NCBI GenBank assembly: GCA_044222185.1
Contig: JBGANV010000007.1
Location: 64,001 to 128,000 of the forward strand
Direction: 5' to 3'
Length of the DNA: 64,000 nucleotides
From: Planctomycetota bacterium
GTDB taxonomy: Bacteria > Planctomycetota > GCA-002687715 > CAIWVZ01
Shown here: positions 4,267-47,467 of the stretch, piece after piece
Numbering within the stretch: position 1 is the stretch's first letter
Layout of the letters: the number at the start of each line of letters is the position of its first letter
Translations under genes and position numbers: made by a program
The notes under the pieces: model-generated
Databases searched by the model: none
The model's input: only the letters and a program-made list of their open reading frames with translations
Told to the model about the DNA's origin: nothing

Positions 4267-4332
4267 TTGCCGCCCGCAGCACGGCACTCGGCCCGGTATA
4301 GTCCTGCCTCGAACGTCGAGGAGGTCCGCGCC

Positions 4333-23381: not shown

Positions 23382-23784
23382 CGGCCGCGCGGGCGGCGCC
23401 GATCAGCCCCACGAGCAGCAACGCGCCGCCGACGGGCACCAGCACGATCCCGAGGGACGGGTCGCCCTCCGTGTTCAGGATCCCGCCCAACAGGAACCCC
23501 AGCGGCATGAGCGCGGCACCGGCGACGATCCATCGCGCGATGCGCCCGCGTCGTCCCGCGTCGGCCGTGATTTTTTCGCCGAGCGCCGCGAACACGAGGC
23601 ACAAGAGCCCCAGCAGATTCCCGTGTGCGTGAGCGAGCGTCCACATCTCGCGGCGCATGGTGCTGCCGAGATAGACGGGGACTTTCATGGCGTGCAGGGC
23701 TTCGAGCGTGAGGCCGAGGGGCAGAAAGACGGCCAGGAGAACCCAGCCCGCAACGAGGACACGTCGAATCGATGGGTCTTTCAT
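23365..23784 (-). CDS. small membrane protein with HxH motif, coupled to multiheme cytochrome
   Basis: Its ATG overlaps the cytochrome stop codon (ATGA). It has about 4 TM segments and the motifs LEALH and WTLAHAHGNLLGLL. Confidence 0.75.
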   Translation of the reverse strand: MKDPSIRRVLVAGWVLLAVFLPLGLTLEALHAMKVPVYLGSTMRREMWTLAHAHGNLLGLLCLVFAALGEKITADAGRRGRIARWIVAGAALMPLGFLLGGILNTEGDPSLGIVLVPVGGALLLVGLIGAARAAATRDA

Positions 23785-25661
23785 TCGCCGATGGAGATGG
23801 GGTTCTGGCCCTGGAGGTTGGTGAGGTTCACGATTTGACGGAGGTCGACGCGGAAATCCTGGCCCACGAACGTGCCCGGGGCGGGACGCGCGAGGCGGCC
23901 GGGCGCCCGTTCGGCGATGGCGTCGAGCACCGAGAATACGGCCCGGCGGCGTGCCTCCGGTCCCTCCGTGTGGTCGATGCGTGAAAGGACGTCGCGCAGT
24001 CCGATGGGAACCCGCTCCTCCAGCGATTGGAGGCTGCGTTGAGCGATCCACCGGATGCTCGGGTATCCATCGCCCATGGTGATCGCGAGCCATGCGCGGA
24101 GCCCCGCGCCGAACGCCGGATCGAAGCTCGCGCCACTGCGCCCGAGTGCGGCCGCGTAGACCGCGCGCTGGACGGCGTCACCCGACAGGAGCGAGGCCGC
24201 AGCGTCTGGCAGAGCCGAGGGCGCGCGATCGCGTCGAGACGTCGGGAGCTCGTAGTGATTGCCCCAGAACGCATTCATCCGTTCGGCGACCCAGGTCAGC
24301 GGGCGGTCGAGGTGACACAGCGTGCATGCATGCGGGCGGCCCGCGTCGGCGTCGCGTTTGGGTTCGGGGGATTCGATGCGGTGGCTGCGGTGGATTTCGA
24401 CGATGCCATACACCATGCGCGGCATGTGGCACTCGACGCACGAGGAACCGCTGCTCTGTGGTGCGTGGTGCGTGTGGGCCGTGACGTCGGCCGCGTAGCG
24501 TTCGTGGCATTGCGTGCAGATCTGGTTTCCCGGCAGGTCCGGGCGCAGTTGCCCGTGAGGATCGCCAGCGTGCATGGCGTGACATGACTGGCAGGTCATG
24601 GGGCCGCGCAGGTAGCAGGGCGACGACGTCACGCCCTGGAACTCGTAGGCGGTGAGCCGCGGCGTTCCGTCGGGCCAGAATCGGACGCGGAACAGGTCCT
24701 GGTCCGATGATCCGCGCACGGGCGTCGACTGCGTGATGGGAGACACGTGATCCGTCAGCTTGTCGCCGGCGCGAAAGGTGGGCCCCGTCGTCATCCACGC
24801 CGAGATGCGCTCGATGGGTTCGGGGAGGCGCTGGCCGTGGCATTGGCCGCAGGACGACACGGCCCGTTCCTTGTCGAGGCGCGCCGGGTTCACGATCGTC
24901 GGGTCGACGGGCTTGGAGGCGTGCAAGGCGTATCGCGCCACGGGATCGCGTCGTGCGTCGGAGTGAGCGGCACCCGGCCCGTGGCACGCTTCACAGGCGA
25001 TGCCGAACTCGCCCACCCGGGAGTCGAACTTGTTTCCCGCAAGCCGCGAGGCGTCCGCGTAGTTGAGCATGCGCGGCTCGGGCCCCGTGTTGTGACAGAA
25101 GATGCAGTTCTCGTTCCACGTGGATTTGTGTCCGTCCCAATTCGGATCGTCGGGATGGAGGAAGACGGTGTTCAGGTGCAGCCAGCGCCGTGCGCCCCGG
25201 TGCCAGAGGATCGGCAGCCGAACGAAGGCATCCGTGTCGCCGCGGTGCTCGACCTCGAAGTACTGCTGGTAACGGCGTGAACCCACGAGCAGCGCGACCT
25301 CGGCCCGTCGCCGGCCGCCCTGGGCGGTCGGCAGGTCCATGAAGAAGCGATCACCCTCGCGGAACGGGCGGGCCTCCGCACCTTCGTACCGGACGGAACG
25401 TCCGTCGAAGATGCCTTGGATCGCGGCGGGCGAGGGACGCTGGGTCATCGTCGAATGGAACGTCGCGCGCCACGAGTCGAAGTGGTCGGGGTGACAGGCG
25501 CGGCAGGTGCTCGAACCCACGTAGCCGCCGTCGCGATGGATGAAACTCGCGGCGGCCTCGTGCGCGACGGGATCGTGCCCGAACCGCAGAGCTCCTGCGA
25601 CGAACAGGGGAGCCGCGACGAACGCGAGCACCGAGAGAGCTTTGACGTTGGCTGATGACAT
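23781..25661 (-). CDS. multiheme (8 x CXXCH) c-type cytochrome
   Basis: CRACH, CIFCH, CEACH, CGQCH, CQSCH, CTQCH, CVECH and CTLCH, with an N-terminal signal or anchor and a helical C-terminal tail. Confidence 0.9.
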   Translation of the reverse strand: MSSANVKALSVLAFVAAPLFVAGALRFGHDPVAHEAAASFIHRDGGYVGSSTCRACHPDHFDSWRATFHSTMTQRPSPAAIQGIFDGRSVRYEGAEARPFREGDRFFMDLPTAQGGRRRAEVALLVGSRRYQQYFEVEHRGDTDAFVRLPILWHRGARRWLHLNTVFLHPDDPNWDGHKSTWNENCIFCHNTGPEPRMLNYADASRLAGNKFDSRVGEFGIACEACHGPGAAHSDARRDPVARYALHASKPVDPTIVNPARLDKERAVSSCGQCHGQRLPEPIERISAWMTTGPTFRAGDKLTDHVSPITQSTPVRGSSDQDLFRVRFWPDGTPRLTAYEFQGVTSSPCYLRGPMTCQSCHAMHAGDPHGQLRPDLPGNQICTQCHERYAADVTAHTHHAPQSSGSSCVECHMPRMVYGIVEIHRSHRIESPEPKRDADAGRPHACTLCHLDRPLTWVAERMNAFWGNHYELPTSRRDRAPSALPDAAASLLSGDAVQRAVYAAALGRSGASFDPAFGAGLRAWLAITMGDGYPSIRWIAQRSLQSLEERVPIGLRDVLSRIDHTEGPEARRRAVFSVLDAIAERAPGRLARPAPGTFVGQDFRVDLRQIVNLTNLQGQNPISIGE

Positions 25662-32739: not shown

Positions 32740-33167
32740 TTCCCGAAATTTTTGACGAAAACCCGATCCCCGCCGAACCGACGATCAACGGTACGGACGC
32801 TGCACAGGTGAAGCGGCGTGCAGGTTCTTTGGAGTCCGGACTTTCGCCTCCTGTCCCGCGGTCCCTCGGGAATCCCCAACCAGACCACGACGACGAACGC
32901 GCGGAACGACCATCTGACCGCTGCAGGATGCGGACTCCGCTTGCTCGACGCAGGGGGATCCTAAGGCCCAAAACCAGCTTTGTCCACTTTCGGGCCTAAT
33001 CTTTGAGCCAGGACTCGGGGCGCCTCCCTCGAGGTCGCATAACGACCGCCGCAGGCATGATTTGAACGGAATTCAGTGCTCAGGTTTCGTGACGGCGGCG
33101 GCTATCTTCGGACGCCTCGCGGTGACCCCCCGGGCACGCTTCTCACCCGGTCCGTTCGATGCTCGCC

Positions 33168-34358
33168 ATGAACGACGTGATCCTGATTCAATACGACGAG
33201 ATCGGCTTGAAGGGCGGCCGAAGCACGTTCTGCGAGAAGCAGTTGGTCCGTGCGGTTCAGAACGCTTTGCGCGATTTTGGGTCGGTGGCCGTCGAGGGGG
33301 TCCGAAACCGGTTCCTGATTCGCCTCGCGGAGAAGCCCTTCACAGCAGGGGTTGCGATGGATCGCCTCTCCCGTGTGTTTGGCGTCCGGTATCTCCTGCA
33401 CGCCATCGAGACGGAGCCGTCACTGGCGGCCGTTGCGGCGGCCGCGATCGAGCTGGTTACACGTGAGACCGGGGCGCGCTCGTTCGGAGTGCGGGTGCGA
33501 CGGGTGGACTGGCCCGCCGACCAGTCGTCACCTCAGATCGAGCGGTGGCTCGGCGACGAGGTCGGCCGGGCCAGCGGCCTGCCTGTCTCGCTCGAGAACC
33601 CGGACGTCTGGATCCGAGTCATGCTCGTGTCGCGCAGGGGCCTCGTGGGAGTACGCCGGGTGGATGGTCCGGGCGGACTCCCCAGCGGGTCGTCCGGCCA
33701 CGGGGTCGTGCTCCTTTCCGGGGGCATCGACTCGCCGGTCGCCGCCTGGATGATGATGGGGCGCGGGCTGAAGGTCTCCGCCGTCCACTTCCATTCCGCG
33801 CCGTTCACGAGCGCGGAGAGTCAGCGGAAGGTGAAGGATCTCCTCGCGGCCCTCTCGCGCTGGCAACCCACCGTCCCCGCCGCCTTCATTCCCTTCGCGA
33901 CGACGGTTCAGCAGGCGATCATCCAGAACACGCCACCGAAGTTCCGGGTCCTGCTCTACCGTCGTTTCATGCTCCGCATCGCAGAGAAACTCGCGCGGGC
34001 GGTCGACGCGACAGCCCTCATCACCGGCGACGCACTGGGACAGGTCGCGAGTCAGACGATCGAGAACCTGGCGACGACGGAAGCCGTGGCCGTACTGCCG
34101 GTCTTTCGTCCGCTCGTCGGCATGGGGAAGGAGCAGATCATCACCACGGCACGGAGGATCGGGACCTATGAAATCTCGATCCGTCCTCATGACGATTGCT
34201 GCTCGTATCTCGCGCCCCGCAACCCGGCGACCTCGAGTACCGCTGCCGAGCTGGACGAAGTCGAGCGCAGCCTGCCGGTTCAGGATCTGGTGGACGCGGC
34301 GGTCCGTGCGCGCGAGGTCTTCTCCGTGCGCTTCGAGCGCGACGTCTTCGGATCGTGA
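33168..34358 (+). CDS. thiI: tRNA 4-thiouridine(8) synthase
   Basis: YDEIGLKG, a THUMP domain, GPGGLP.G, PP-loop LLSGGIDSPVA, GQVASQT, RPLVGMGK and DDCC. No rhodanese domain. Confidence 0.93.
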   Translation: MNDVILIQYDEIGLKGGRSTFCEKQLVRAVQNALRDFGSVAVEGVRNRFLIRLAEKPFTAGVAMDRLSRVFGVRYLLHAIETEPSLAAVAAAAIELVTRETGARSFGVRVRRVDWPADQSSPQIERWLGDEVGRASGLPVSLENPDVWIRVMLVSRRGLVGVRRVDGPGGLPSGSSGHGVVLLSGGIDSPVAAWMMMGRGLKVSAVHFHSAPFTSAESQRKVKDLLAALSRWQPTVPAAFIPFATTVQQAIIQNTPPKFRVLLYRRFMLRIAEKLARAVDATALITGDALGQVASQTIENLATTEAVAVLPVFRPLVGMGKEQIITTARRIGTYEISIRPHDDCCSYLAPRNPATSSTAAELDEVERSLPVQDLVDAAVRAREVFSVRFERDVFGS

Positions 34359-35269
34359 TCTCGGGCCGGAGCGGCCAGTGCGAGGAGGCCGTGAGCGAGC
34401 CACCCGACGACTTCGGCGATCGCCGCCGCCTCGCCGCCCTCGCCCGAGCCAAGCGCCTGCGCGCGCCGAACGGCCAGTGATTCGAGCCGGAATCGCGACT
34501 TTCCGCGCGCCGCGCGCACCTGACGCCAGGCGGGGGCATCGAGTTCCACGATGCGGGGCAGGAGCGACTCCGGGTCGCGCGTCAATGCGAGGTACTCATC
34601 CGCGCGCCGGACCGACTGGTGCACGGTGCGCAGCTCACGCCTTCGATCGCGCACCAGCGTGACGAGCTCCTTCACGTTGTGCCGCATGCGGAAGAACTGC
34701 ACGTGTCGCGGGACCACGACGGTCGTCTGGAGGAGGTCGTCGACGGTGCCCTGGGCGATCCGCTCGATCACCGCTCGCGTCGCGGGAATCTCGGACCCGT
34801 CGAGTGCGTACTCGACGTCGAGCCGCGCGCATTCGATCGCCGCAAGCTCGCCAAGGACGGGAACACGCTCGAAAGCCGCACCGAACGTCTTGCGCAGGAA
34901 CGCGCGGAAGCGGTCCGCGAGTTCGCGAAGGCTGTGGGTGCTCGCAGGGCCATCGAGGAGGAACGCTTCGATCATCGCACGAAACGTCATCGGCTTCGTC
35001 GCGCGCGGACCCGACTTCTGCGCGAGACCGAGGACGGCGAGCGTGGTTGCAAACGTCCACCCGAGCATGGACTGGTGGCCGCCGACGACCAGGTCGTGGT
35101 AGACGGCGAGGCGCTCCCTGGGGATGCGTGCCAGGGCGTCGCGCTCGCGGGCGCGCAAGCCGGGTGTCGTTGTGACGATGCGGTGCGCCGAGCGGGCACC
35201 CGACGAGAACTCGGTCGTCGAGTGCAGGACCATGTCGCGGAACGCAGCTTGGACGTGACGTAGCGGCAT
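34280..35269 (-). CDS. DUF2063-type MNIO partner protein (HvfC/BufC-like)
   Basis: N-terminal LRHVQAAF...RERLAVYHDLV...FATTLAVLG...FRAFL...LGELAAIE pattern of DUF2063 proteins. Starts 8 nt after the DUF692 stop codon. Confidence 0.72.
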   Translation of the reverse strand: MPLRHVQAAFRDMVLHSTTEFSSGARSAHRIVTTTPGLRARERDALARIPRERLAVYHDLVVGGHQSMLGWTFATTLAVLGLAQKSGPRATKPMTFRAMIEAFLLDGPASTHSLRELADRFRAFLRKTFGAAFERVPVLGELAAIECARLDVEYALDGSEIPATRAVIERIAQGTVDDLLQTTVVVPRHVQFFRMRHNVKELVTLVRDRRRELRTVHQSVRRADEYLALTRDPESLLPRIVELDAPAWRQVRAARGKSRFRLESLAVRRAQALGSGEGGEAAAIAEVVGWLAHGLLALAAPARDHDPKTSRSKRTEKTSRARTAASTRS

Positions 35270-35277
35270 GTTCACTC

Positions 35278-36135
35278 TCAGGCCGAGCGGGCCGGTTTCC
35301 GTTCGGCAGCGAAACCTGTTCGGGAGACGATGCGGGCGGCGCGAGCCGCCTCCTGGAGCAATCGCTCCCAGGTGGGAATGTCGTTGTCCCACTCGATCAT
35401 CACGGAGCAGGGCGGCAGGAGCGGGAGCACCCGCTCGAACAGCCGCCAGACCGGCGGCGGCACCGGCGCACCGTGAGTGTCGACGAGGATCTCTCCCGAG
35501 TCGTCGTGCCCCGCGAGATGCACCTGGACCACGCGTTCCAGCGGCAGGCGCGCGATCATCGCCTCGGCGTCGTAGCCGTGATTGCACGCGTTGACGTAGA
35601 CGTTGTTCACGTCCAGGAGCAGTCCGCAGTCCGCTTCTTCGCAGACTGCGCGGATGAACGTCGCTTCGTCCATCTCGCTGTCGTCGACGACGGCGTAGTA
35701 CGACGCGTTCTCGACCAGGTAGGGCACTCCGACTGCGTCCCGCACACGGGTCACGTTCTTCGCGATCCGTCGGACGGCTTCTTCCGTGAACGGCATGGGG
35801 ATGAGCTCGTTCATCGAGATCGGGCCTGCGGTGGAGTACGAGAGGTGATCGCTCGCCCAGAGCGCGTTCGCCGATCTCACCGTGTCACGAAGGTGACGGA
35901 GGAACGTGCGATCGACCGGGCGATCGGACCCGAGCGAGGCGCCAACGCCGTGCGCGACCATGGGGAATCTCTCGGCGACGGCCAGGAGGTTCCGCCGGTG
36001 GAGCCCGCCGCGGTTCATGTAGTTCTCGGGAGTGAACTCGAACCAGTCGACGCCCGGCGCGGTCTCCAGGATCCGTGCCACGTGTGGCCTGCGCAGGCCC
36101 ACACCGATCCCGAGCGGGCGGGTAGCGGATGTCAT
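35278..36135 (-). CDS. DUF692 multinuclear non-heme iron oxidative enzyme (MNIO; HvfB/BufB-like)
   Basis: GIGVGLR.PH, WFEFTPENY, HGVGASLG, SDHLS, LVENAS, LLLDVNNVYVN, HLAGH, DTHG and IEWD, covering the typical iron-ligand motifs. Confidence 0.95.
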   Translation of the reverse strand: MTSATRPLGIGVGLRRPHVARILETAPGVDWFEFTPENYMNRGGLHRRNLLAVAERFPMVAHGVGASLGSDRPVDRTFLRHLRDTVRSANALWASDHLSYSTAGPISMNELIPMPFTEEAVRRIAKNVTRVRDAVGVPYLVENASYYAVVDDSEMDEATFIRAVCEEADCGLLLDVNNVYVNACNHGYDAEAMIARLPLERVVQVHLAGHDDSGEILVDTHGAPVPPPVWRLFERVLPLLPPCSVMIEWDNDIPTWERLLQEAARAARIVSRTGFAAERKPARSA

Positions 36136-36264
36136 CGAGCGTTGGGGTGCCATCGAGGGGGTGCTTCGGAACGAAACCGCGCGGGCATCGCCGCTCGACG
36201 GAGCGGGATGCACGCGCGCGGGTCGAGCCGGGCCGTCGCGGCCTGACTCACGGGGTGATCGGCA

Positions 36265-36546
36265 TCACTTCGCGGAGCCGCAGGACTTCGTCCCGCCGCA
36301 GCTCTTGTTCGAGCCGCAAGACTTGTTGCCACCACAGCTCTTGTTCGCGCCGCAGGACTTGTTCGCGCCACAGGATTTGTTGGCGCCACACGATTTGTTG
36401 CCGCCACAGCTCTTCTGGTCGGCTGACGTGCCCGTCGATCCCGTCTCATCGCTCGAGCACGCGGGCAGCATCAAGCCACCGAGCCCGAGGAGGGCGCTGG
36501 CGACGATCACCTTGCGGAACTTCGTGAACGGCTTCTTCGAGGACAT
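36265..36546 (-). CDS. putative MNIO-modified RiPP precursor; lipoprotein with 8 KSCG repeats
   Basis: AAGGGAGA RBS-like sequence upstream. The protein reads MSSKKPFTKFRKVIVASALLGLGGLMLPA-C (lipobox), then a Ser/Thr linker, then eight KSCG hexapeptide repeats. It lies directly upstream of DUF692. Confidence 0.88.
   Translation of the reverse strand: MSSKKPFTKFRKVIVASALLGLGGLMLPACSSDETGSTGTSADQKSCGGNKSCGANKSCGANKSCGANKSCGGNKSCGSNKSCGGTKSCGSAK
36271..36414 (-). repeat. 18-bp coding tandem repeat x8 (KSCG[G/A/S][N/T/A])
   Basis: Eight 18-nt units with many synonymous differences between them. Confidence 0.9.
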
Positions 36547-36777
36547 TCCTGATTCTCCCTTGATCTTCATCGAACTCTCCCATCGAGCCTCCGGCGCACG
36601 TGCGCCGACGCAAGATGGCCTATCGATGATGAGATAGATGCGCGCAGCGAGGTCTGCGTTTCCTTCGCCCCGAAAAATCGGGTCCGGACAGGCTACAAGC
36701 AAGTTCGTCCGGTGTGAAGCGCAGTCGGCCGTCGCCGCCTTGGCAACGGAAGTACGACCTGAGCGGTCGCTCGGATT

Positions 36778-38385
36778 TCAGCGCGGCCTGATCCGCGAGC
36801 CGAGGAGCAGATAGGACGGCTCGCCGTCGACGGCGGCGGCCGTCGCGCGAATCGGGAAATCGCGCAGCGATGTCGGAACCTCTGCCGCCGTGCCCTCGAA
36901 GAGCAGCAGGGCCCCCGGCGTCCCGTCCAGAAATGATGCGGCACCGTCGGGCGGGATGATGCGCAGGTCCGGTCGTCCCAACGCGAACGCGACCGCCGGG
37001 TTGGCGTCCAGGGACGCGAACGGGGCGTCGCCGACTTGCGGGGCCAGCGCTCGCATGATCGGGGCGACGGAGCGGTAGGGCGCGACGGCCGAGGCCACTC
37101 CGGCGTCAGCGAACAGACAGTCACTGACGAGCGGCAGCCCGAGCACGATCAGGCCGGCGGCCGTCAACTCGGTGCGCCGCCCGATCCTGTGGAGGATCAC
37201 GACGGCGGCGACGGCGAGAGTCAGGGAGGTGACGGCCGATGGGACCAATGGCGCCGCAGGATCCGCTCCAGGTGCCATGGCGGAGATGCCCCAGGTGACG
37301 GCTGCTACGGCGACGCCCAGCCCGGCCACGAACACGGCGGCCGTGCGCAACCGGCCCGCGAGCACTCGTACCGCGGTCGTGCCGCCCCAGACTGCGAAGA
37401 GGGGATAGAACGGCAGCAGGTAGTGCGACTGCTTGCTGCGGCTGACGGAGAAGACGATCAACCCGAGGATCCCCGTCAACGCGGCGGCGCGAACGGGCGG
37501 CAGCAATCGCCGCCAACCGAGGATCATCCATGGCAGGAGAAGACCCGCGGGCAGCAGCCCCTCCGGCAGTTTCTCCAGGTAGTACAGCGGCCCGCGACGA
37601 TGCTCGACGTTCGCCATCGTCAGGCGGTCGATCAATGCGCCCCACGAGCCCAGCGCACGTGCGACGGGCCAGGCCCAAAGGAGCGCGAACGCCACCGCGG
37701 TCACGACCAGCGCCACGGTCCCACGCCAGTGGGTCCACGGAGCGCGACGACGCGCGACGCTGCATCCGAGCATGAACGAGATGGGAAACAGGAGCGCGAG
37801 CACGGGGCCCTTCGTCCACGTCATCAGGCCGACGGAGAGGGAGGCCACGACCCACGGCCCGGCGCCGCGCACGTCGAAGAGAAACGGACCCGACAGCGCG
37901 AGGTAGCCAGCCGTCGCCAGCGTCGTCAGCAGGATCTCGAGCTCGGTCGAGCGCGCCTGCGTGAAGAAGCGGAAGCTCGCCAGGAGGAAGAGCCCGGATG
38001 CGAGACCCGCCAGCGGCCCCCCGAGGCGCCGGCCCAGGCGGGCCGTGAGCCACACGCAGACGGTCGCGGTGAGGACCGACGCCAGCCGCATCAGCCACAG
38101 GTCCGTCCGTCCGGTGATCCCCGCGAGCGCTGCCGAGAGTGAATGCGCCAACGGTGGCTTGTTCACGTAGGGCTCGCCGAGCATGTAGGTCGGGAACAAA
38201 CGTCCGTGGGTCGCGATGTCCCAGGCGACCAGCGGAACGCGGCCCTCCGATCGTTCGTCCATGTCCCGCGCTGCCAGCCAGGGGATGAGGGTCGCCACGG
38301 TCACGAGTCCGAGGACGAGCCCCGTCGCAAGTCCTGACGGTCCCGGTGCTGCTTGCGTTTCGGTCGTTTCGATCGGGTCTGACAC
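36778..38385 (-). CDS. ArnT/PMT-family (GT-C) membrane glycosyltransferase
   Basis: ERSEGR, GEPYVNKPPL, MRLAS, TKGP, HRRGPLYY and SKQSHYLLP, with many TM segments. Confidence 0.88.
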   Translation of the reverse strand: MSDPIETTETQAAPGPSGLATGLVLGLVTVATLIPWLAARDMDERSEGRVPLVAWDIATHGRLFPTYMLGEPYVNKPPLAHSLSAALAGITGRTDLWLMRLASVLTATVCVWLTARLGRRLGGPLAGLASGLFLLASFRFFTQARSTELEILLTTLATAGYLALSGPFLFDVRGAGPWVVASLSVGLMTWTKGPVLALLFPISFMLGCSVARRRAPWTHWRGTVALVVTAVAFALLWAWPVARALGSWGALIDRLTMANVEHRRGPLYYLEKLPEGLLPAGLLLPWMILGWRRLLPPVRAAALTGILGLIVFSVSRSKQSHYLLPFYPLFAVWGGTTAVRVLAGRLRTAAVFVAGLGVAVAAVTWGISAMAPGADPAAPLVPSAVTSLTLAVAAVVILHRIGRRTELTAAGLIVLGLPLVSDCLFADAGVASAVAPYRSVAPIMRALAPQVGDAPFASLDANPAVAFALGRPDLRIIPPDGAASFLDGTPGALLLFEGTAAEVPTSLRDFPIRATAAAVDGEPSYLLLGSRIRPR

Positions 38386-38553
38386 CTCAGAGCGGCTCGC
38401 ATCCGCGCGTTTCGGCGGTCTTTGGCGGTTTCTGGTCGTGGATTCTCACCGAAGCCGACGCCCGGGCAAGACCGACCGCTCACGGTGAAGTTGCGAAGCC
38501 GTAATGAGGTCAGTGCGCAACTGCCGATGAATTCCTGTAAGCTGACGACCCTC

Positions 38554-38754
38554 ATGTCCGACCGACGCGACAACTCCGGCTCCGAGCCCGCATCTCGTGA
38601 GAGACCCGGCTTCCCCGCACGCCTCCCTGACGTCATCGAGAGCGTGAAGCGTGCCTGGGCAGCGCTGCGCGAACGGCTCGGCATCGCCGAGGAGCGCATC
38701 CCGGTGCCCGTCCGCGTGCCCGCACAGCGGTCAGCCCCCCGTCGTCCGCGCTGA
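38554..38754 (+). CDS. possible small protein (66 aa)
   Basis: Fills the gap between two minus-strand genes. It has an amphipathic helix (VIESVKRAWAALRERLG) followed by IPVPVRVP. Confidence 0.35.
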   Translation: MSDRRDNSGSEPASRERPGFPARLPDVIESVKRAWAALRERLGIAEERIPVPVRVPAQRSAPRRPR

Positions 38755-39606
38755 CGTACGAACGAGCGTTTCCGGATCCAGCCGGCGCGCTTCGTGGCCT
38801 CTGACGCGCGACACCTCGCGCGACACGACCTCCTCGGTCGAGGACAGGTCTCCGATCGCCGCCTCGCGGGCGTAGCGTGCGAGGAACCTCGACGCGTGCT
38901 CCGTGCCGAGGATCAACTCGCATGCGAGGGCGATGGGCGCGAGGTCTCGCGCATGACGGCGCGATACCGTGCCTCGCCAACGCGAGCGTGCGCCGCGGCC
39001 CGCGTCGATGGCGCGGAACTCGGGCGTCACCATCTCCGGTGCTCGCACGAGGACGTTTCGCGCGTTCAGGTCACCGTGTACGAAGCCGGCGCGATGGACG
39101 CGCGCGACCCACCCCGCGAGCGCATCCACGGCCTCCGCAGCGCCATGCGCGCTCCATCGGCTTGCAGCCGCGAGCCATCGATCGAGACGGATGGCGCCGT
39201 GAAACTCCTCCGTCACGAGGAGCGCCGAGCGAAGCAGCCCGAACTGGCGTCGCTCGCCGAGGGCGAGCCGGCCGACGGTTGGAATGCCGAGCTCCTCCTG
39301 AATGCGCAGACTGCGCCACTCCCGCTCCGCGCGATGCCACCACATGCGCCGCGAGACGATCCGCAGGACGAGATCCAGGGGCGTCGGGTAGTAGAAGCAC
39401 TTCGCGAACACGGCGCGACCGCCGTCGATCTGGAGGCGCCGCACCCAGCTCGTCCGCGACCCCGCCACGAGCTCTCCTCTCGCGAAGGCGTCGATGCCCT
39501 CGAGCGAGGTGATCGCCAGCGCCGCGACCGCGCGTTCTCCACCGGCGTGGAACCGCCAGCGGTCGCCGTGCCAGCGGGCCGAAGGAATGCGGCGCTTCCC
39601 GTTCAT
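38731..39606 (-). CDS. lipopolysaccharide kinase (Kdo/WaaP/InaA family)
   Basis: VFAKCF, RAEREW..L, LLVTEE, catalytic loop HGDLNARNVL and AIDAG. Confidence 0.82.
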   Translation of the reverse strand: MNGKRRIPSARWHGDRWRFHAGGERAVAALAITSLEGIDAFARGELVAGSRTSWVRRLQIDGGRAVFAKCFYYPTPLDLVLRIVSRRMWWHRAEREWRSLRIQEELGIPTVGRLALGERRQFGLLRSALLVTEEFHGAIRLDRWLAAASRWSAHGAAEAVDALAGWVARVHRAGFVHGDLNARNVLVRAPEMVTPEFRAIDAGRGARSRWRGTVSRRHARDLAPIALACELILGTEHASRFLARYAREAAIGDLSSTEEVVSREVSRVRGHEARRLDPETLVRTSARTTGG

Positions 39607-39799
39607 CGCTCAGGAAACTATCAGCCGGCGTTCGACCCAACGGCTGAGGCGAGCCTGGAATCCCCGCGCCGGCGAGGCTCGGCCGCGTGGCGGTTTCGGG
39701 CCGCGAGGAAAATCCGGCGGTTCATTTCGGACGTTCTTCGGGCGGGTCGCGCCAAGGGATTCGGACGCGGTGATCGACCGCGATGGAGGCCGAACCCAG

Positions 39800-40483
39800 A
39801 TGACGACCGACATGATCCTGAACGGCAATGTGGATTTCGCGGACGAGCGGAACCTCGTTCTGGCCCTGCGACGGGGCGACGACGCGGCGTTCGAATTCGT
39901 CGTACGAACGTTCTCTCCCCGCCTGTTGCCGGTCGCGAGGCGTCTCCTGAAGAACGACACGGACGCGGAGGACGCCCTTCAAGATGCGTTTCTGTCTGCG
40001 TTTCGTGGACTCGATGCATTCTGCGAGGGTGCGCGGCTGTCCACCTGGCTTCATCGGATCGTCGTCAACGCGGCGCTGATGAAGCTCCGCCGGCAGCGCC
40101 GGAAGCCCGAGTGTTCAATCGACGAGCTCCTGCCGCGCTTCGACGCCGAGGGGCATCACGCCATCCCGATTGCAGCCGCCAGCGCCACGGCCGAGTCCTC
40201 GATCACGCGCGACGAACTGCATGCCCTCGTGCGGTCTCGCATCGCCGAGCTTCCGGACGACTATCGGAACGTGCTCGTCCTTCGCGACATCGAGGAACTC
40301 GACACGGAGGAAACCGCCGAGGTTCTCGGGATCAGCATCGCGGCCGTGAAGACCCGCCTGCATCGCGCGCGCCAGGCGCTGCGGACGCTGATCGCTCCGA
40401 GCCTCTTCGGCGCCGATGAGGCGAAGGACGCCGCGCCCGGACGGACGGCGCGGCGCCGCGACGTGGCGGCGCTCCTCGTGTGA
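39800..40483 (+). CDS. ECF RNA polymerase sigma factor
   Basis: GGAGG upstream; region 2 GDDAAFE..DAEDALQDAF..LSTWLHRIVVN and region 4 LPDDYRNVLVLRDIEEL..AEVLGISIAAVKTRLHRAR. Confidence 0.92.
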   Translation: MTTDMILNGNVDFADERNLVLALRRGDDAAFEFVVRTFSPRLLPVARRLLKNDTDAEDALQDAFLSAFRGLDAFCEGARLSTWLHRIVVNAALMKLRRQRRKPECSIDELLPRFDAEGHHAIPIAAASATAESSITRDELHALVRSRIAELPDDYRNVLVLRDIEELDTEETAEVLGISIAAVKTRLHRARQALRTLIAPSLFGADEAKDAAPGRTARRRDVAALLV

Positions 40484-40486
40484 CGT

Positions 40487-43400
40487 TCAGGGCAAGAGGA
40501 GGCCGCGGGCTCTCAGGATGTCGCGCAGGGCGGCAACCGCCGACGGCTCGGCGGTATCGATGGCTCGCAGCCCATCGGATCGGATGCGTCCCCGGATCAT
40601 GCGGCGCCATGACTGGGGCGTCGTCGGGGCGAACGCGATCCGGGTTCCGGCGACCGTGCTCACGGTGAGCGGGCGACCCATTCTGTCGAACCATCTCTGG
40701 GCGAACGCCACGCGCGCGTCGTCGGAGGGCAGATTTGCCGCCACATCGGCGACGGCCCGCAACGTCTCGACCGTGTCGTCGAGCGAGGCGACGAAGGCCA
40801 CCAGGTCGCGAGGCTCGATCGGAGCCGGCGCCGAGTCCGTGCCGGTGGCCGCGGCCGCCAGTTGCTCGAAGGCCTGGGGCTGAACCGGGCCAAGCACGGC
40901 GAACAGGGCGACGCGATCACGCGCCGTGCGTCCGACGGACCAGCGGCGCCACAAGTCCAGGAGTTCCGGCCCCAGCGCCTTCTTCGCCGACGCAGGGAGG
41001 AGTCGGACGACGTCGATGACGGAACCTCGCTCCGGTCCCTCGGGCGCCGATGGATCCGGGCACGCCTCGGGCGACCCGAGGTAGTGCTTCAGGTCTTCCT
41101 TCGTCCATTGCGCCGCTCGTGCGGTCAGCGGCGATCCGTCGGGCAATCGTCCGAATCGTTGCACGTCCTGCGGCGTTGCCTGATTCGAAAGGTCGCTCCA
41201 CCAGGCGTTGACGTCCGCGTCGCTGGCGTTCTGGCTTCGGGTGAGCGCCGCCTCGAGCCAGCCGCGCACGATCGTGCCGGCGTCGGGCTCGCCGGCGCGC
41301 GCGCGCAGTCGCGTGTCGGTCCGCGTGTTCTCCGGATCGTCGAGGCTCCAAGGCACGGCGATGAAGTGCGCGTCGCCGAGAGCCCTGATGAGGATCGAGA
41401 CGATGGGCCCCTCGCGGGTTTGCGACAGCGCTGCCGCCACGGTTTCCGGATCGAACTCGACCCTCCGCCTGACCTCCGCCTCGAGCATCTGGAGCCGCGA
41501 CTCGGAGAGGTTTTGAAGCGCAACGAGCCGCGCGATCGGCAGGTCCTCGAATGGATTCGCTTCGATCCGAGCCAGGGCGGAGACGACTTCGTCGGCCACG
41601 TCCCGGGGGACGTCCTGCCGGAGTGCCTCGCGGAGGATCGCGACGGCGTCCGGCCGATCGAGAATCAGCTCCAGCGCTCTCTGCGCCGTCTCGCGGGACC
41701 TGAGTCGGGCGACGAACACGGGGACGGGAAGCGCGGCGCGGTCTCGCTTGTCGATCGCCTCGAGCGCCGGCATGGCCCATTCCGCGGAGCCCGTCGACGC
41801 CAGGCCCATGAGCATCAGTCCGAGAGTCGACTGGATCGGGACGCGTCCGCGCATGCGCGCGAGTACGGTCGTCGTCACGTCCTGCGCACGGGCGCTCGTG
41901 GCCGGATCGCCGCGCGCCCAGGCCACGATCACGCGGACGCGTTCCTGGATTGCCGCTGCGTCCGTGTCCGTCGTCACGGCCTCCGTTGGCAACGCTCCCG
42001 GGTCGAGGTCTCCGTTCACGAGGCTCGCGACGAGTGCGTCGGCGGCCGCGCGGTGCAACGCGGCGGCCTCGTCGAGCAACGTGGAAAACGATGCGTCGAC
42101 GCGTGCCCCGAACGGCGGGCGGACGACTGCCGCGCCGAACTCCAAGCCAAGCCGGGCCCATCGCACGTCGCCACGGTCCGTGGCGAGACGGCCGCGCACG
42201 AGGCGAATCAGCTCGAGCCAGCTGGCGAGCACGGCTTCGCTCCCGGTTGCGTCGCCGGTGACGATGCCATCGACGGTCGCGACCGCGTGAGCCGAGCCCG
42301 CGAAGGCGTCATTCAACCGCAGGTCGAGGATCGCATCCAGTCGCTCGCCGCGAGCGTCGGCCGAAGAGTCGTCGCCCCGTCGATCTCCCAGGGCCCTCAC
42401 GAGCATTCCCGGGTCGAACGAGCGTCGGATCGCGATCAACGCGGCGAGCCGCGCTTGCAGCGGCGTCATGGCCGGATCGCCGAGTTTCCAGCGGTCACCG
42501 AAGGCGCGCCCCTCGGTGGTCTGGCCGATGGCTGCGGCCAGCGCGGCGAGGGCCTCGATCGCGGGCGGATCGCCGAGGATCTCGGCGATCACGGGGCCGT
42601 TCAGGAGCTCCGTTCGATTCGCGCCCAGGGCCAGTACGAGCGGTACAAGCACCTCGGGCGTGCGAAGGAGCGGCGCGAGAGACCTCACCGCAGAGGCGAG
42701 CGTGGGACATGCGTCCGCGAGCGGAAGCCCGGCGAGCATGTCGAGGCGCGCGCGAAGAACGGCAGCGTCCGTGATGGACGGCAACGCCGCAATTGTCTCG
42801 TCGCGGATCTTCCCGATCGTCGCGGTCGAGAGCGCGTTCACGGTCGTCCGCGGCGCAACGGGCGCGCCCTCGTCCACGGCCCTGACGGCCATCCACGCGC
42901 CAGCGCCGACCAGCGCCGGGTTCTGAACCGCCCAGGCCGAATCCGGCGGCCAGGAGGCCTCGGTCGCGGACGTCACGACGAGTCGCATCCGGACCGTTCG
43001 CCGGCCGTCGTCTCCCGCGTCGTCGAAACCGATGAGGATCCGGTCATCGCGCAGGTCACCGGATGGCGTCGCCGTCAGGATCTGGCAGCCGGGCGGCAGC
43101 GGGCACTCGACGAGGAGCGGACCCGAGTCCTTCGGCGCCGTCACGCTCGTCTGGACGTCGAGCATCTCGCCGACGCGAAACGACAGCCGATCGGGCGCGC
43201 TGGCGGGCAGCGGCGAATCGGCACCGGCTCGTCGTACCTCGCGGACGACCGAGAGCAGGCCTGTCGAGGTGCGCGCCGCGTCCGGCCGCGGATGCCACGG
43301 GCGACGAATGAACGCGAAGACGGGACCGCTCGTCGCACGAACGGTGAAGGGGCGATCCTGCGCGCTCAAGTCGATCGTCTTCCGTGCGCCGCGACCAGCG

Positions 43401-46400
43401 ACGAGATCCACCGTCGAGACGGAGGGAACGCCCTCGACGTGCACGGTGACCGGAGGCAGCTCGGTGGGAAGCGGTGTCGTCCGAGTGCGCGCGAGCGCCG
43501 CGATGGCCAGCGCTCGCGAAAGCGGATCGCTCTCCGGGTTCGCTGCAAGCGCCGTCGTCACGGCCTCCGCCAATCGCTTGCGAACGGGCGGCGAGGCCTC
43601 GACCAGCGCCGCGAGCTCGAGCCTGTGCGCGGCCCGGGCGACGGCACTCTCGAGCCACGCCGGGCGAGTCACGTCGGCCACGGTGTCGCCGGCTTCGATC
43701 CGCGAGAAGGCAAGCTGGGCGCCCTCCGCGTCACCGGCGCGAGCGAGGACTGCTGCCGCCCAGGCGAGCAGCCCTGGAGGCTGGCGCGTCGATTGGCGGA
43801 CGAACGCCGCCACGGCATCGCGCGCGAACGCATGCGTCGCGTCGTACTCGAACGCGGCAATGGCCGTCGTCGTGACGATGGTCGGACGCTGCGCCACCGG
43901 CACGCGGTTGTTCCACGGCGCGAACTCCTGGATCTCCTCACCTTGGACGGCGACGGCGCCGTTTCCCCGCGCATCACTGAAGATCCTCCCGGCGAGGCGG
44001 GGGAACCCATCGCGGAAGTCGGGGAGGACGTTCAGCGCGTCGACGTCCAGGCCGAACGATCGAGCTACGGCGAACAGGTGAACGAGTCCCGGCGTCAGCT
44101 CGAAGTCCGTCGCCACGCCCTGGAGGCGCGCGAGGCCGTCCGCGGTACGGAACGTCCGCAGTCGGGCCGCGCGTTCGCCCGCGGCGCGGCGGGTGAGCTC
44201 GTCGCCGCCACTTGGCACCGGGTCTCCGAGGAGCTGCGCGAGCATGGTCGCAGCGAGGGCGTCGGCGGTGGGTGTACCGTCGACGAGGAGCTCCTCGCGG
44301 ACCTGGCGCACGAGTGCTGCTTCGCCGTACGCGAGGATGAGGGCCGTACCCGGCACTGTTTCCGCCGCCACGCTCGTGGCTTGACCGGCCGTCACGGGTT
44401 CCGTTCGCCACGTGCGTCCGACGGGCGTTGCGCCGACGGGGAAACGGGCCGAGTTCGTCGCGGCGACCCGGCCGTCCGCGCCCGCGGCCAGCACGCGGAA
44501 TTCGACGGAACCCGCGTTCGTGCGCGCCTGGATCCCGTAACGCCGCACGGCGACCTCGCCGGGCGTGAGCGTGATCGACTCGTGGGCGTCGATGAGCGGC
44601 GGATCGGTGACCGCGCCCGCGGCGATCGCCGTCGCGCGCAGTTCCAGGGTTCGTGGGGCGGCTTCGTCGGGGCCGATCCTCACCACGACCGTGGTCTGGT
44701 CACCTGGCCGCATGAACGACGGGGCGACGACGGCGATCGGCACGGCCCCGGTCGAGTCGATGGACGCCATGCCGAGACCCGGTGCACCGCCATCGTCGAA
44801 CGCGATCGCCGTGACACGCATGCGGCCAGGGCGATCCGGCATCGTCACGCGCGCCGCCACGCGCCCATCTGCGTCCGTCTCGAGGTCCGCGGCGAAGAAG
44901 ACCGTCCCCAGGGTGCTCGGCAACGTCCCCGACTCTCCGCGAAACGGGTTGAGCGGGGCCGACGGCGCGCTCACGCCGACCGAGCGGAACACGACGGAGT
45001 CATCGGACTCGCTCAGCACCGCGCCGACGGATCCGCCGGAGATCAGCTGGCCGACGACGCGCAGCGGCCTGTTGAGCGGAGCCGTGGCGAGCGTGTGGAC
45101 GTAGCTCGGTCGCAGCTGCGGTCGCATCAGTTCCGCGAGGTCCGAAGCGCGCAGATTGAACAGCGCTTGATCCTCGTCGACGACGGACAGGGCCACGCGG
45201 GCCTGTCTCGGGTTGCCGTTCCGGCTCGTCACGCGGACGGCGATCGAGGCTTCGGCGCCGGGTTGCACGCGCCGCGGAGCATCGCAGGCGACGACGAGGT
45301 TGCCGCCGGGTGGCGCCACGTCGACGACCAACGCCGCGTCGGCAGGGCGTTCGCGACGGGCTCGGAGTTCAGTCGCGACCGCCGCTCCCTCGCAAGGGCC
45401 GCTGGCGCGGCTGGCCGCGAGTTGAACGCGCGGCCACCACCTGCCGTCGGTCGCGAACGTCGCGGTGCCCTCCCCCCGATCGTCGAGCAGGACGCTCTGG
45501 ACGGCGATGGGGCCGATGCGCACCGCCGACACGAGGAAGCGCGTCCCGGGATCGCCGCGGAGCCGGACGGTGAGCGGTTCGCCCACGGCGGGGGCTGGTG
45601 TTTCGAGGTCCAGGGTCGCCACGGCGTCGGCCGTGCGCGCCGATCCTTCCGAGGGCACCCGGATGTCCCCGTTCCACGCGACGGTGGCCTGGTCGGATCC
45701 GCGGACGAGAATGCTGAGCTTGACCACGCCTTCGCGGACCAACGCCGCGGCGTCGAGTCCGGAAAGGCCCAACGACAGCTGTGTCCGTCCCGAGTCGTCC
45801 ACCGTGAACTCGTGGGATTCGCGATGGGCTCCGAGGGTGCAGGTGAGAGTTCCAGTCAGAGGCCCCGGCGACGTACCGTTCGACAGCCGCGCCGTGACGT
45901 CGATCTGCGGGTCGGGGTCGCCGGGGCGGTAGGTCGACGTCGTTCGTGCGTGGATCGTCAGCGGCGATCGCGCGGAGTCGCGCACGGAGAAGACCGGGAC
46001 GTCGGCCGCGACGTCGGCGTCGTCTTCGGGCTTGTCATCCGCCGGGACCTGCACGCGGATGCGCGCCACGCCCGGCCCCACGCCCGCGGGGAGCGTGAAC
46101 GTGACGTCGAATCCGCCGTGTTCGTCCGTGGCCCCGTGGAACGCGAGCGTCTGCGGTTGACGCGGAAACGCCGTGACGACGACCCTCGTTCTTGCTGCGC
46201 GGGTGAGACCCCAGGGGCGGTCGGGCAGCATGCCGGCGGCCGGCTCCTGACCGATCCCTGCCAGCTTCCAAAGCGAGACGCGCATGCGGACGACGTCGCC
46301 CGGGTCGTGGAAGGCCCGGTCCACGTCGACGTGCGCGACGTGTCCGGGGATCGTCGCCGGCTGGACCGCATCGGCTGTGAACGCGGCGACGGCGAGGTGT

Positions 46401-47467
46401 CGGCCGTACGACGCCTGGATGAGGGTGTGACGCGGTGCGAGCGCTCCCACCCAGGTGCCATCGTCGCGAGTCACGCCCGTGATCACCGCCGGCCATGCGC
46501 CGCCGTCGGTGCGATTGAACCCGGCCTGGGCTCTGGGATCGGTCGAGAACCGGAGTTTCACGCCAGGTGCGGGTTTGCCGGCGAGCGTCGCGAGGAGCGT
46601 CGCGCCGCCCGTCGTGCCGTGAGCGACGATCTCCAGGTCGGAGACGATGAGCGCGCGTACGCGACGTGCGCCCGTGACGGGGGAGGCGACCTCCACGCGA
46701 TACGCGCCGGGCTCGAAGCCGGGAAGCGGGTCGAGGGTGACGTCGCGGGGAAGGATGCGGTTGATCACGGGAGCCGAGGTCGGCGCGACGAACGACTCCG
46801 GCTCGAGCTCCTGCGTGTCGACGTCGATTCGGTGGACCTGCAGCGCGACGGATTCGGCGAGCGGCCACGGAAGGGGAATGGGCGTGCCGGAGGGGATCCG
46901 GATGGACGAGGGCCGCTGGCTCGCGAATTCGAGCAGGTAGCGCCGGGCCTGATCGAGGGCGAGGTGATCGGACGTCGGGATTCGCGCGCGCCGTGCGACG
47001 ACGTCGGCGAAGCCGGGCAGGAGCGCGGCGACCTCCGCGGACGAGGGGGCCTCGACGCGATGACGGCCGTCCCCCTCGGGGCGTTCGACGAATGGCTCGA
47101 AGAGGTCGGCACAGGACTGGGATTCGATGAGCATCGCCGCGAGGCCGGCGACGATCGCCGTGTCGGCGGCGGCGTCGTCGACGTAGGCGCGAGCGACGCC
47201 GAGCATCGCCCGCGGTCGCCGGCTCGGCGGCTCGGCCGCCGCGCGCAGGAGTGCGATCCGCGGAGCCATCTCCGTGGCGACAGCGGGATCGAGCGTGAAC
47301 GTGAGGTCGTCGAGCGCGGTGCGTGCGAGGACGGAGTCGTCGCGCAGCAGGGCTTCCTGGATCGGCGCCAGCGGCGACGAGGCGGGGAGCAGGACCTGGG
47401 CCGAAGCATGGCCCGCGAGGAGCGCGGACCCGACGGCAGCGAGCACCCGGATGATGAGAGTGCGCAT
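40487..47467 (-). CDS. alpha-2-macroglobulin-like giant secreted protein
   Basis: Signal peptide, MG2-like DRAFHDPGDVV, VALSVVDE, A2M-like TVFFAADLETDADG..MPDRPGRMRV..APSFMRPGD, and an MG10-like segment LLVECPLPPGC..DLRDDRI. Confidence 0.75.
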   Translation of the reverse strand: MRTLIIRVLAAVGSALLAGHASAQVLLPASSPLAPIQEALLRDDSVLARTALDDLTFTLDPAVATEMAPRIALLRAAAEPPSRRPRAMLGVARAYVDDAAADTAIVAGLAAMLIESQSCADLFEPFVERPEGDGRHRVEAPSSAEVAALLPGFADVVARRARIPTSDHLALDQARRYLLEFASQRPSSIRIPSGTPIPLPWPLAESVALQVHRIDVDTQELEPESFVAPTSAPVINRILPRDVTLDPLPGFEPGAYRVEVASPVTGARRVRALIVSDLEIVAHGTTGGATLLATLAGKPAPGVKLRFSTDPRAQAGFNRTDGGAWPAVITGVTRDDGTWVGALAPRHTLIQASYGRHLAVAAFTADAVQPATIPGHVAHVDVDRAFHDPGDVVRMRVSLWKLAGIGQEPAAGMLPDRPWGLTRAARTRVVVTAFPRQPQTLAFHGATDEHGGFDVTFTLPAGVGPGVARIRVQVPADDKPEDDADVAADVPVFSVRDSARSPLTIHARTTSTYRPGDPDPQIDVTARLSNGTSPGPLTGTLTCTLGAHRESHEFTVDDSGRTQLSLGLSGLDAAALVREGVVKLSILVRGSDQATVAWNGDIRVPSEGSARTADAVATLDLETPAPAVGEPLTVRLRGDPGTRFLVSAVRIGPIAVQSVLLDDRGEGTATFATDGRWWPRVQLAASRASGPCEGAAVATELRARRERPADAALVVDVAPPGGNLVVACDAPRRVQPGAEASIAVRVTSRNGNPRQARVALSVVDEDQALFNLRASDLAELMRPQLRPSYVHTLATAPLNRPLRVVGQLISGGSVGAVLSESDDSVVFRSVGVSAPSAPLNPFRGESGTLPSTLGTVFFAADLETDADGRVAARVTMPDRPGRMRVTAIAFDDGGAPGLGMASIDSTGAVPIAVVAPSFMRPGDQTTVVVRIGPDEAAPRTLELRATAIAAGAVTDPPLIDAHESITLTPGEVAVRRYGIQARTNAGSVEFRVLAAGADGRVAATNSARFPVGATPVGRTWRTEPVTAGQATSVAAETVPGTALILAYGEAALVRQVREELLVDGTPTADALAATMLAQLLGDPVPSGGDELTRRAAGERAARLRTFRTADGLARLQGVATDFELTPGLVHLFAVARSFGLDVDALNVLPDFRDGFPRLAGRIFSDARGNGAVAVQGEEIQEFAPWNNRVPVAQRPTIVTTTAIAAFEYDATHAFARDAVAAFVRQSTRQPPGLLAWAAAVLARAGDAEGAQLAFSRIEAGDTVADVTRPAWLESAVARAAHRLELAALVEASPPVRKRLAEAVTTALAANPESDPLSRALAIAALARTRTTPLPTELPPVTVHVEGVPSVSTVDLVAGRGARKTIDLSAQDRPFTVRATSGPVFAFIRRPWHPRPDAARTSTGLLSVVREVRRAGADSPLPASAPDRLSFRVGEMLDVQTSVTAPKDSGPLLVECPLPPGCQILTATPSGDLRDDRILIGFDDAGDDGRRTVRMRLVVTSATEASWPPDSAWAVQNPALVGAGAWMAVRAVDEGAPVAPRTTVNALSTATIGKIRDETIAALPSITDAAVLRARLDMLAGLPLADACPTLASAVRSLAPLLRTPEVLVPLVLALGANRTELLNGPVIAEILGDPPAIEALAALAAAIGQTTEGRAFGDRWKLGDPAMTPLQARLAALIAIRRSFDPGMLVRALGDRRGDDSSADARGERLDAILDLRLNDAFAGSAHAVATVDGIVTGDATGSEAVLASWLELIRLVRGRLATDRGDVRWARLGLEFGAAVVRPPFGARVDASFSTLLDEAAALHRAAADALVASLVNGDLDPGALPTEAVTTDTDAAAIQERVRVIVAWARGDPATSARAQDVTTTVLARMRGRVPIQSTLGLMLMGLASTGSAEWAMPALEAIDKRDRAALPVPVFVARLRSRETAQRALELILDRPDAVAILREALRQDVPRDVADEVVSALARIEANPFEDLPIARLVALQNLSESRLQMLEAEVRRRVEFDPETVAAALSQTREGPIVSILIRALGDAHFIAVPWSLDDPENTRTDTRLRARAGEPDAGTIVRGWLEAALTRSQNASDADVNAWWSDLSNQATPQDVQRFGRLPDGSPLTARAAQWTKEDLKHYLGSPEACPDPSAPEGPERGSVIDVVRLLPASAKKALGPELLDLWRRWSVGRTARDRVALFAVLGPVQPQAFEQLAAAATGTDSAPAPIEPRDLVAFVASLDDTVETLRAVADVAANLPSDDARVAFAQRWFDRMGRPLTVSTVAGTRIAFAPTTPQSWRRMIRGRIRSDGLRAIDTAEPSAVAALRDILRARGLLLP

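Follow-up and report, generated by a model that had tools for sequence, protein, structure and literature searches.

A compact operon encoding a precursor peptide, an MNIO (DUF692) enzyme, and a DUF2063-type partner protein was found on the minus strand of a 64,000-nt stretch of DNA from a Planctomycetota bacterium (GenBank assembly GCA_044222185.1, contig JBGANV010000007.1, positions 64,001–128,000), which is referred to as the window. This precursor–MNIO–partner operon is probably of the captophorin type. The cysteines of the KSCG motifs in its precursor would be converted to 5-thiooxazoles, Cys30 would be lipidated, and the product would chelate copper at the membrane. The locus seems to be an as yet undescribed variant of the captophorin and DAG-RiPP peptides (RiPP, a peptide made by the ribosome and modified after translation), and not a new kind of system. 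Captophorins were defined as a class from more than 24,000 MNIO–PME1 loci (Gadgil et al., PMC13097082). Such a locus is marked by an MNIO and a PME1 together with a precursor rich in Cys; all three were present in the window and were arranged alike in a related locus, L001.

The features of the operon and its immediate borders were as follows.

36265..36546, minus strand: precursor peptide P0001 (93 aa), which matches no Pfam or NCBIfam family
36271..36414, minus strand: KSCG hexapeptide array (regular expression and Tandem Repeats Finder, TRF; 18-bp DNA period)
36547..36777, minus strand: upstream intergenic region of 231 nt, with a GGGAGA Shine-Dalgarno-like element ahead of the ATG
35278..36135, minus strand: MNIO (DUF692) enzyme P0002 of a BufB-like subclade (285 aa; PF05114)
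34280..35269, minus strand: partner P0003 (PME-type 1), with a DUF2063 N-domain and a probable C-domain like a RiPP recognition element (RRE) (329 aa; PF09836)
33159-34358: thiI, convergent with the partner gene

The gene order was precursor–MNIO–partner (A-B-C) between 34280 and 36546, and the coordinates and strand of all three genes confirmed the co-oriented trio of the initial annotation. The MNIO gene started 129 nt behind the precursor stop codon, the partner ATG followed the MNIO stop codon after 8 nt, and the 3′ end of the partner gene overlapped thiI by 79 nt (34280-34358). The GC content at third codon positions (GC3) was 0.84–0.86 across the three frames, compared with a GC content of 0.675 for the window.

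Precursor peptide P0001 and its relatives

P0001 was divided into a signal peptide (residues 1–29; 36459-36546), a Ser/Thr/Gly spacer (residues 31–44), and a region carrying eight KSCG motifs (residues 45–93). In sequence order, MSSKKPFTKFRKVIVASALLGLGGLMLPAC was followed by SSDETGSTGTSADQ and then by the eight motifs. The signal peptide contained a basic n-region, MSSKKPFTKFRK, with the conserved residues K4, K5, F7, and R11, and a hydrophobic core. Cys30, in the sequence L-P-A-C, was the putative lipidation site. The same anatomy had been annotated initially (basic N-region, hydrophobic H-region, LPA-C, spacer, and eight KSCG motifs) and was recovered here from the sequence. The cysteines of the KSCG motifs were spaced 6,6,6,6,6,6,6, in hexapeptides of the form N-K-S-C-G-x, and of the ten KSCG motifs that the six frames of the window contain, eight fell in this array. 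TRF gave a DNA period of 18 with 6.8 copies and 74% matches, and the codons varied from repeat to repeat (Ser, AGC three times, TCC three times, TCG, and TCT; Lys, AAG or AAA; Cys, TGT or TGC). The 74% DNA match and the varying codons indicate that the repeat has been maintained at the peptide level, with no recent DNA duplication. P0001 is a low-complexity repeat and probably disordered.

Another in-frame ATG was present eight codons upstream of the ATG at 36546, and the latter was favoured because the relatives of P0001 begin with M-[SA]-x-K-K. The idea that P0001 is a chance reading frame was barely credible, although high-GC DNA yields many spurious open reading frames (ORFs) and several opposite-strand ORFs overlap the region. 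The GC3 of P0001 was 0.86, a Shine-Dalgarno-like element was present, the KSCG motifs of the window were concentrated in this one frame, and homologues on other contigs shared its N-terminus and Cys.

P0001 matched no Pfam family at E values up to 0.1, DUF2282 included, and no NCBIfam family above its cut-off; the model libraries searched did not include the BUF_6/12Cys profile described by Antoine et al. The HvfA models NF050137 (KCGExKCG_twice) and NF050188 matched none of 14 KSCG- or KKCG-type peptides, P0001 included, at E values up to 10. The positive control, the EGKCG precursor of locus L004, matched the HvfA model with 31.2 bits against a cut-off of 19.5. KSCG with a six-residue period, first annotated as a distinct core motif, accordingly fitted neither the HvfA (EGKCG) nor the bufferin models.

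A first word-indexed search with P0001 gave one match, P0004, and phmmer against 1.84 billion representative sequences gave 28 matches at E ≤ 1e-3. Twenty-two of the 28 were inspected (all but P0006, P0007, P0013, P0017, P0021, and P0023), and 12 of the 15 short ones consisted of a signal peptide and K-x-C-[GSA] repeats. The seven long matches were set aside as compositional, five being Cys-free hexamer repeats and two being other Cys repeats without Lys, and P0019, P0026, and P0032 were dropped from the peptide set as unrelated-looking. One long match, P0027 (392 aa), carried a signal peptide and E-P-[ST]-C-G-x hexapeptides, with Cys-Gly every six residues and no Lys; judging from this repeat, it might be another type of Cys-repeat precursor. 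With a profile built from four orthologues, 23 proteins were recovered at E ≤ 10; nine of them had E ≤ 1e-3, and three of the nine were query members. The best score in the ESM Atlas, 0.88, was to small hypothetical Myxococcota clusters; it lay under the evidence level of the tool and was taken as a lead only.

The close orthologues P0009, P0024, P0031, and P0033 shared the start M-x-x-KKLF-x-KVR, a Cys at position 28–29 followed by SS, and four to seven KSCG motifs. The same N-terminus was combined with SCGAKSCG-type cores in P0035, P0038, P0039, P0042, P0043, and P0045, and P0034 carried eight KSCG motifs with a period of 5 downstream of T-T-A-C. When P0001 was aligned with its 10 nearest relatives (11 rows), M1, K4, K5, F7, R11, V15, G23, and C30 were invariant. 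A wider set was composed of P0001 and 30 database peptides (n=31), with the long matches and the three dropped peptides excluded. A KK-[LV]-F-like start recurred even in the relatives with a signal peptidase I (SPI)-type signal, P0018, P0025, P0047, and P0049, and the conserved n-region of the signal peptide may, from its conservation, be a recognition element for the partner protein. P0001 is a member of a small unannotated KSCG-type family, mostly with a lipoprotein signal, which is paired with its own MNIO clade.

A scan of genome contigs with P0002 gave four loci (L001–L004), one of them from the P0002 clade. This locus, L001, from a Planctomycetota metagenome-assembled genome, had a layout like that of the window, with a lipobox and KSCG peptide, an MNIO, a partner, and a convergent thiI; its MNIO, partner, and thiI were 70%, 38%, and 59% identical to those of the window, respectively. 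The upstream peptide of L001 was P0031, with L-G-G-C, KRCG, KHCA, and four KSCG motifs. Between its partner gene and thiI, L001 also contained a YceI-family gene (2543-3160; 57.9 bits, under the equivalog cut-off of 232), which the window lacked. The precursors of L002 and L003 were of the DUF2282 type, and that of L004 was of the EGKCG type. The precursor P0033 and the MNIO P0057 (63% identity) both came from one 6713-bp contig, which suggests a further linked pair and makes a third precursor–MNIO pairing probable.

The nine cysteines of P0001 would be able to bind soft metals directly, and P0001 could on that account be an unmodified metallothionein-like thiolate lipoprotein, with the MNIO and the partner acting on another substrate. 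Such an arrangement was judged highly improbable, since the A-B-C order and the tight spacing recurred in L001, the operon held no other candidate substrate ORF, and PME1 genes almost always adjoin MNIO genes with a Cys-rich precursor encoded upstream (PMC13097082).

MNIO enzyme P0002 and partner protein P0003

P0002 matched PF05114 over model positions 1–262 of 263 with an E value of 1.8e-99 and 332.7 bits, against a gathering score of 25, and matched the structure with PDB code 3BWW with an E value of 7.5e-49. Residues H62, H97, E142, D175, N178, H206, D219, H221, E248, and D250 (P0002 numbering) were invariant in 34 aligned MNIOs. The full-length match and the invariance of the metal-site residues in the 34 sequences bore out the DUF692 enzyme with intact iron-ligand motifs that had been annotated here. 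The putative ligands of metal sites 1 and 2 in P0002 follow the MbnB literature. Residues N178, D219, and H221 of P0002 aligned, through 3BWW, with the site-3 residues N175, D242, and H244 of HvfB, which are essential for its activity (10.64898/2026.07.17.739211). Residue D250 aligned with FonB-Asp249, the proposed catalytic base (PMC13097082).

The MNIOs of the window and of the four loci were scored against the curated models of BufB (NF050167) and HvfB (NF003818).

Window P0002, KSCG precursor: BufB 309.7 bits (cut-off 310), HvfB 268.6 bits (cut-off 360)
L001 MNIO, KSCG precursor: BufB 305.3 bits, HvfB 264.6 bits
L002 MNIO, DUF2282 precursor: BufB 330.3 bits, HvfB 237.9 bits
L003 MNIO, DUF2282 precursor: BufB 376.1 bits, HvfB 210.9 bits
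L004 MNIO, EGKCG precursor: BufB 259.1 bits, HvfB 412.6 bits

The controls L002–L004 scored as expected for their linked precursor types. When P0002 was searched over 5.8 billion proteins, 7546 of 8000 scored candidates had E values of 1e-40 or below. Among the best 120 of the 7546 matches, 12 shared 61% identity or more with P0002, up to 91% for the top one, which lay on an 1811-bp contig. Identities in a second group were 52–58%, and those of Myxococcota proteins annotated as ‘MNIO family bufferin maturase’ were about 49%. In a tree of 31 of these 120 proteins and three locus proteins, from which the fragments P0050 and P0087 were left out, P0002 belonged to an 11-member clade (support 100/99) that neighboured a 9-member clade (support 100/99). 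The residue after the catalytic Asp was Asn or His in the P0002 clade (Asn in P0002 itself) and Phe in the EGKCG-linked enzyme of L004. Phe at this specificity position has been described for Lys-Cys enzymes (PMC13097082). P0002 had the motif IEWDNDIP in common with the enzymes that L002 and L003 encode beside a DUF2282 precursor.

A different MNIO oxidation on KSCG, for example to an oxazolone and thioamide or to a cross-link, or a partial modification of the cysteines, would leave no 5-thiooxazole metallophore. The diversity of MNIO chemistry (PMC13056109), the separate MNIO clade (100/99) with scores under both equivalog cut-offs, and a core motif that differs at positions −1 and −2 are consistent with this alternative. 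It was nevertheless considered quite improbable. The nearest curated model was BufB, the metal-site residues and the catalytic Asp were all kept, and a 5-thiooxazole was found in every MNIO–PME1 system examined by Gadgil et al. (PMC13097082).

The partner P0003 matched PF09836 (DUF2063) over residues 6–125 with 33.7 bits, above the gathering cut-off of 27.2, as expected for the DUF2063-type partner of the initial annotation. A sequence search of the PDB with P0003 gave no significant match. The structure model of P0003, built from a 5-row alignment, was weak, with a predicted local distance difference test score (pLDDT) of 55.8 and a predicted template modelling score (pTM) of 0.54. The PDB matches of this weak model with a probability of 1.00 were the MNIO partners TglI (8hi7_A and 8hci_A) and NGO1945 (3dee), with TM values of 0.34–0.56, and the next match had a probability of 0.12. 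P0003 was assigned as a PME-type 1 partner (DUF2063 and RRE), the RRE half being weakly shown by the model. The last ~28 residues of P0003, which were basic and of low complexity, were missing from the homologue in L001, and this tail may therefore be functionless read-on. A complex prediction of MNIO, partner, and precursor, in which the precursor was scored and controls were not included, reached 0.01 and 0.03, with the mark set at 0.32; it gave no verdict and was not used as evidence either way.

Proposed pathway and comparison with published systems

The chemistry of the heterocycles, the lipid anchoring of the peptide, and its role in metal binding and physiology were proposed by analogy with published systems. 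A cytoplasmic complex of the MNIO and the DUF2063/RRE partner would recognise the precursor, probably through its unusually conserved n-region (KK-L/P-F-x-K-V/F-R), and would turn the Cys of every one of its eight KSCG motifs into a 5-thiooxazole by oxidation. The modified peptide would be exported by the Sec system. Cys30 would then be diacylglyceryl-modified and the signal peptide cut by signal peptidase II (SPII), so that a lipopeptide of ~64 residues would stay on the periplasm-facing membrane, where its eight heterocycles would chelate copper.

Several points weighed against this pathway. The P0001 sequence L-P-A-C, with Pro at −2, failed a strict lipobox pattern modelled on PROSITE PS51257. 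As L-P-A before C would equally serve as an SPI site, the copy in the window could be released instead of anchored. The chemistry on KSCG is an extrapolation, as Ser and not Lys precedes the Cys and Asn and not Phe follows the catalytic Asp. P0002 was under both equivalog cut-offs (BufB and HvfB), and P0003 was far under that of HvfC (31.8 against 142). No copper-related, DoxX, or regulator gene was present beside the operon or among the other window ORFs scanned. Gene context was established for two loci and one inferred locus, among ~30 related peptides.

The strict lipobox pattern was met by all 10 nearest relatives of P0001 and by 18 of the 31 peptides of the wider set, and P0001 passed only when Pro was allowed at −2. 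Cys30 was invariant in 11 of 11 sequences, always directly behind the hydrophobic core, and was followed by Ser in 10 of them. With the same MNIO chemistry, SPI cleavage after L-P-A would give a soluble periplasmic captophorin, like the bufferins and HvfA, and no lipoprotein. The Pro at −2, the residues −3 (Leu) and −1 (Ala), which suit an SPI site, and the 12 of 31 peptides in the wider set that look SPI-type and have no lipobox-type Cys (for example P0014, P0018, P0020, and P0025) speak for such a product. The invariant Cys30 with its following Ser and the canonical lipobox of all 10 relatives speak against it, and there is no obvious reason to keep a Cys at +1 of an SPI site; a soluble product was considered unlikely. 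Lipid anchoring of P0001 is likely from these sequence features, yet unproven because of the Pro at −2, which is the weakest link of the proposed mechanism for the window copy.

The 5-thiooxazole assumed in the favoured pathway was demonstrated in fontiphorin, oxazolin, and gonophorin, and captophorins, which have Cys-rich Sec precursors, were linked to copper detoxification and protection (PMC13097082). The same report mapped 6,906 precursors with repeats according to their 5-mer motifs and described a preference of FonB for a Cys-Gly dyad. HvfA/oxazolin, fontiphorin, and gonophorin resembled the window locus in combining a repeat precursor with an MNIO and a PME1 and in keeping the Cys-Gly dyad, and the window modification is by this likeness probably a 5-thiooxazole, with a probable copper role. 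The Lys-Cys captophorins have an SPI signal and Phe after the catalytic Asp, whereas the window locus has a predicted SPII-type signal and Asn. Unlike HvfA-type systems, the window had no DoxX/HvfX gene, and its enzyme and partner scored well under HvfB (268.6 against 360 bits) and HvfC.

The closest described likeness in lipidation was found in the DAG-RiPP paper (PMC13056109; preprint, November 2025), in which triacylated lipo-DybAH was demonstrated. The same paper gave experimental evidence for the lipidation of lipo-NedABC, an EGKCG-repeat peptide with an SPII signal modified by an MNIO and its partner, and proposed copper sequestration at the membrane. Like the window locus, for which the lipoprotein-type signal is predicted, lipo-NedABC of Neisseria dentiae has a short lipoprotein-type precursor, repeated x-K-x-C-G-type motifs, and an MNIO with a DUF2063 partner, and its proposed role, copper capture at the membrane, is the one proposed for the window peptide. 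The two systems differed in several respects. The NedA core consists of EGKCG pentapeptides with Lys directly before Cys, in contrast to the N-K-S-C-G-x hexapeptides of the window. The EGKCG control matched HvfA-family models whereas the window peptide did not, and the window MNIO was nearer BufB than HvfB. The host of lipo-NedABC is Neisseria and that of the window locus is Planctomycetota-like. The lipidation of NedA is demonstrated and that of the window peptide is predicted only.

Four families, Buf1, Buf2, Buf_EGKCG, and CxxxxC, were described by Antoine et al. (PMC12452194), who predicted lipoprotein signals for ~16% of Buf2 bufferins and suggested the signal peptide as part of recognition by BufBC. 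The window locus shared with the bufferins its gene order (bufABC), its closest curated model (BufB, 309.7 bits), and the IEWDNDIP motif of the L002 and L003 enzymes. Its precursor had neither DUF2282 nor any other Pfam domain, in contrast to the bufferin precursors (BufA1, DUF2282; BufA2, BUF_6/12Cys), and P0002 was 0.3 bits short of the BufB cut-off whereas the DUF2282-linked controls scored 330 and 376. The group adjamnio-3 was described as unstructured Sec-signal precursors beside MNIOs of a small separate cluster, with true PME-type 1 partners (PMC12452194). As far as it goes, this description fits the window locus, and the KSCG family may be the same group. A search for ‘KSCG’ together with ‘MNIO’ gave no relevant main text, and the supplements of PMC13097082, PMC12452194, and PMC13056109 may list KSCG-type precursors.

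The initial annotation had interpreted the locus as an MNIO/DUF2063 RiPP cluster with a Sec-type signal, a KSCG array, and no DoxX gene, and this part of the interpretation stood. The novelty claimed for a lipidated MNIO product did not. The statement that no lipoprotein RiPP was recognised among characterised MNIO products was not supported in view of lipo-DybAH and lipo-NedABC (PMC13056109), and the idea of a membrane-tethered metal sink was already in print for a sister motif (PMC13056109). No new category is opened, as a lipidated, multivalent, MNIO-made copper peptide had been published. The distinct features that remain are the KSCG core outside the HvfA and bufferin models, the separate MNIO clade, and the Planctomycetota host.

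A broader proposal is tentative. The KSCG-type peptides may form a separate captophorin family in which Lys stands two residues before Cys with a period of 5–6, with its own MNIO clade and substrate rule (Asn or His, not Phe). Its members would be mostly lipoproteins of Planctomycetota and neighbouring phyla, with an n-region KK-L-F-x-x-V-R that serves at once for Sec/SPII targeting and for recognition by the RRE partner. If this were true, the family would be a natural test case for holding a signal peptide back until modification is complete. The conserved n-region might help to show in what way RiPP precursors with a Sec signal are recognised and retained in the cytoplasm before modification. 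The motif with Ser at −1, Lys at −2, and Gly at +1, together with the Asn of the enzyme, would offer a natural enzyme–substrate pair for the substrate rules of FonB. Through the window locus, the copper-binding thiooxazole peptides and their lipid-anchored form would be extended to another core motif, another MNIO clade, and a poorly studied phylum.

Surroundings of the operon and other genes of the window

Besides thiI, the neighbours of the operon were a sigma-70 gene and genes for a PMT_2 glycosyltransferase, a Kdo-family kinase, an extracytoplasmic function (ECF) sigma factor, and an alpha-2-macroglobulin-like protein. Pfam scans of the neighbouring ORFs, and of 34 larger window ORFs in total, found no member of the DoxX family, in keeping with the first annotation, in which no DoxX-type membrane gene was seen. 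No sigma-70-like promoter or terminator was found in 34000-37000, and no Rfam family matched in 33000-40000.

Further from the operon, a MerR/HTH_17 DNA-binding domain fused to a response-regulator receiver domain was encoded at 55561-56277 (plus strand), ~19 kb away. The neighbouring alpha-2-macroglobulin-like protein, which is secreted and 2326 aa long (A2M, A2M_BRD, and bMG10), was encoded at 40487-47467 (minus strand), and a radical SAM/SPASM gene lay directly upstream of it at 47538-48638 (minus strand). This SPASM enzyme may be part of a different system for peptide maturation. A Tricorn-protease-like protein of 1154 aa (PD40, Tricorn_C1, PDZ_Tricorn, and Peptidase_S41) was encoded at 4099-7563 (plus strand). 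The 626-aa product of 23781-25661 (minus strand) carries CXXCH and cytochrome c7-type motifs in pairs and is by these motifs probably a multihaem cytochrome.

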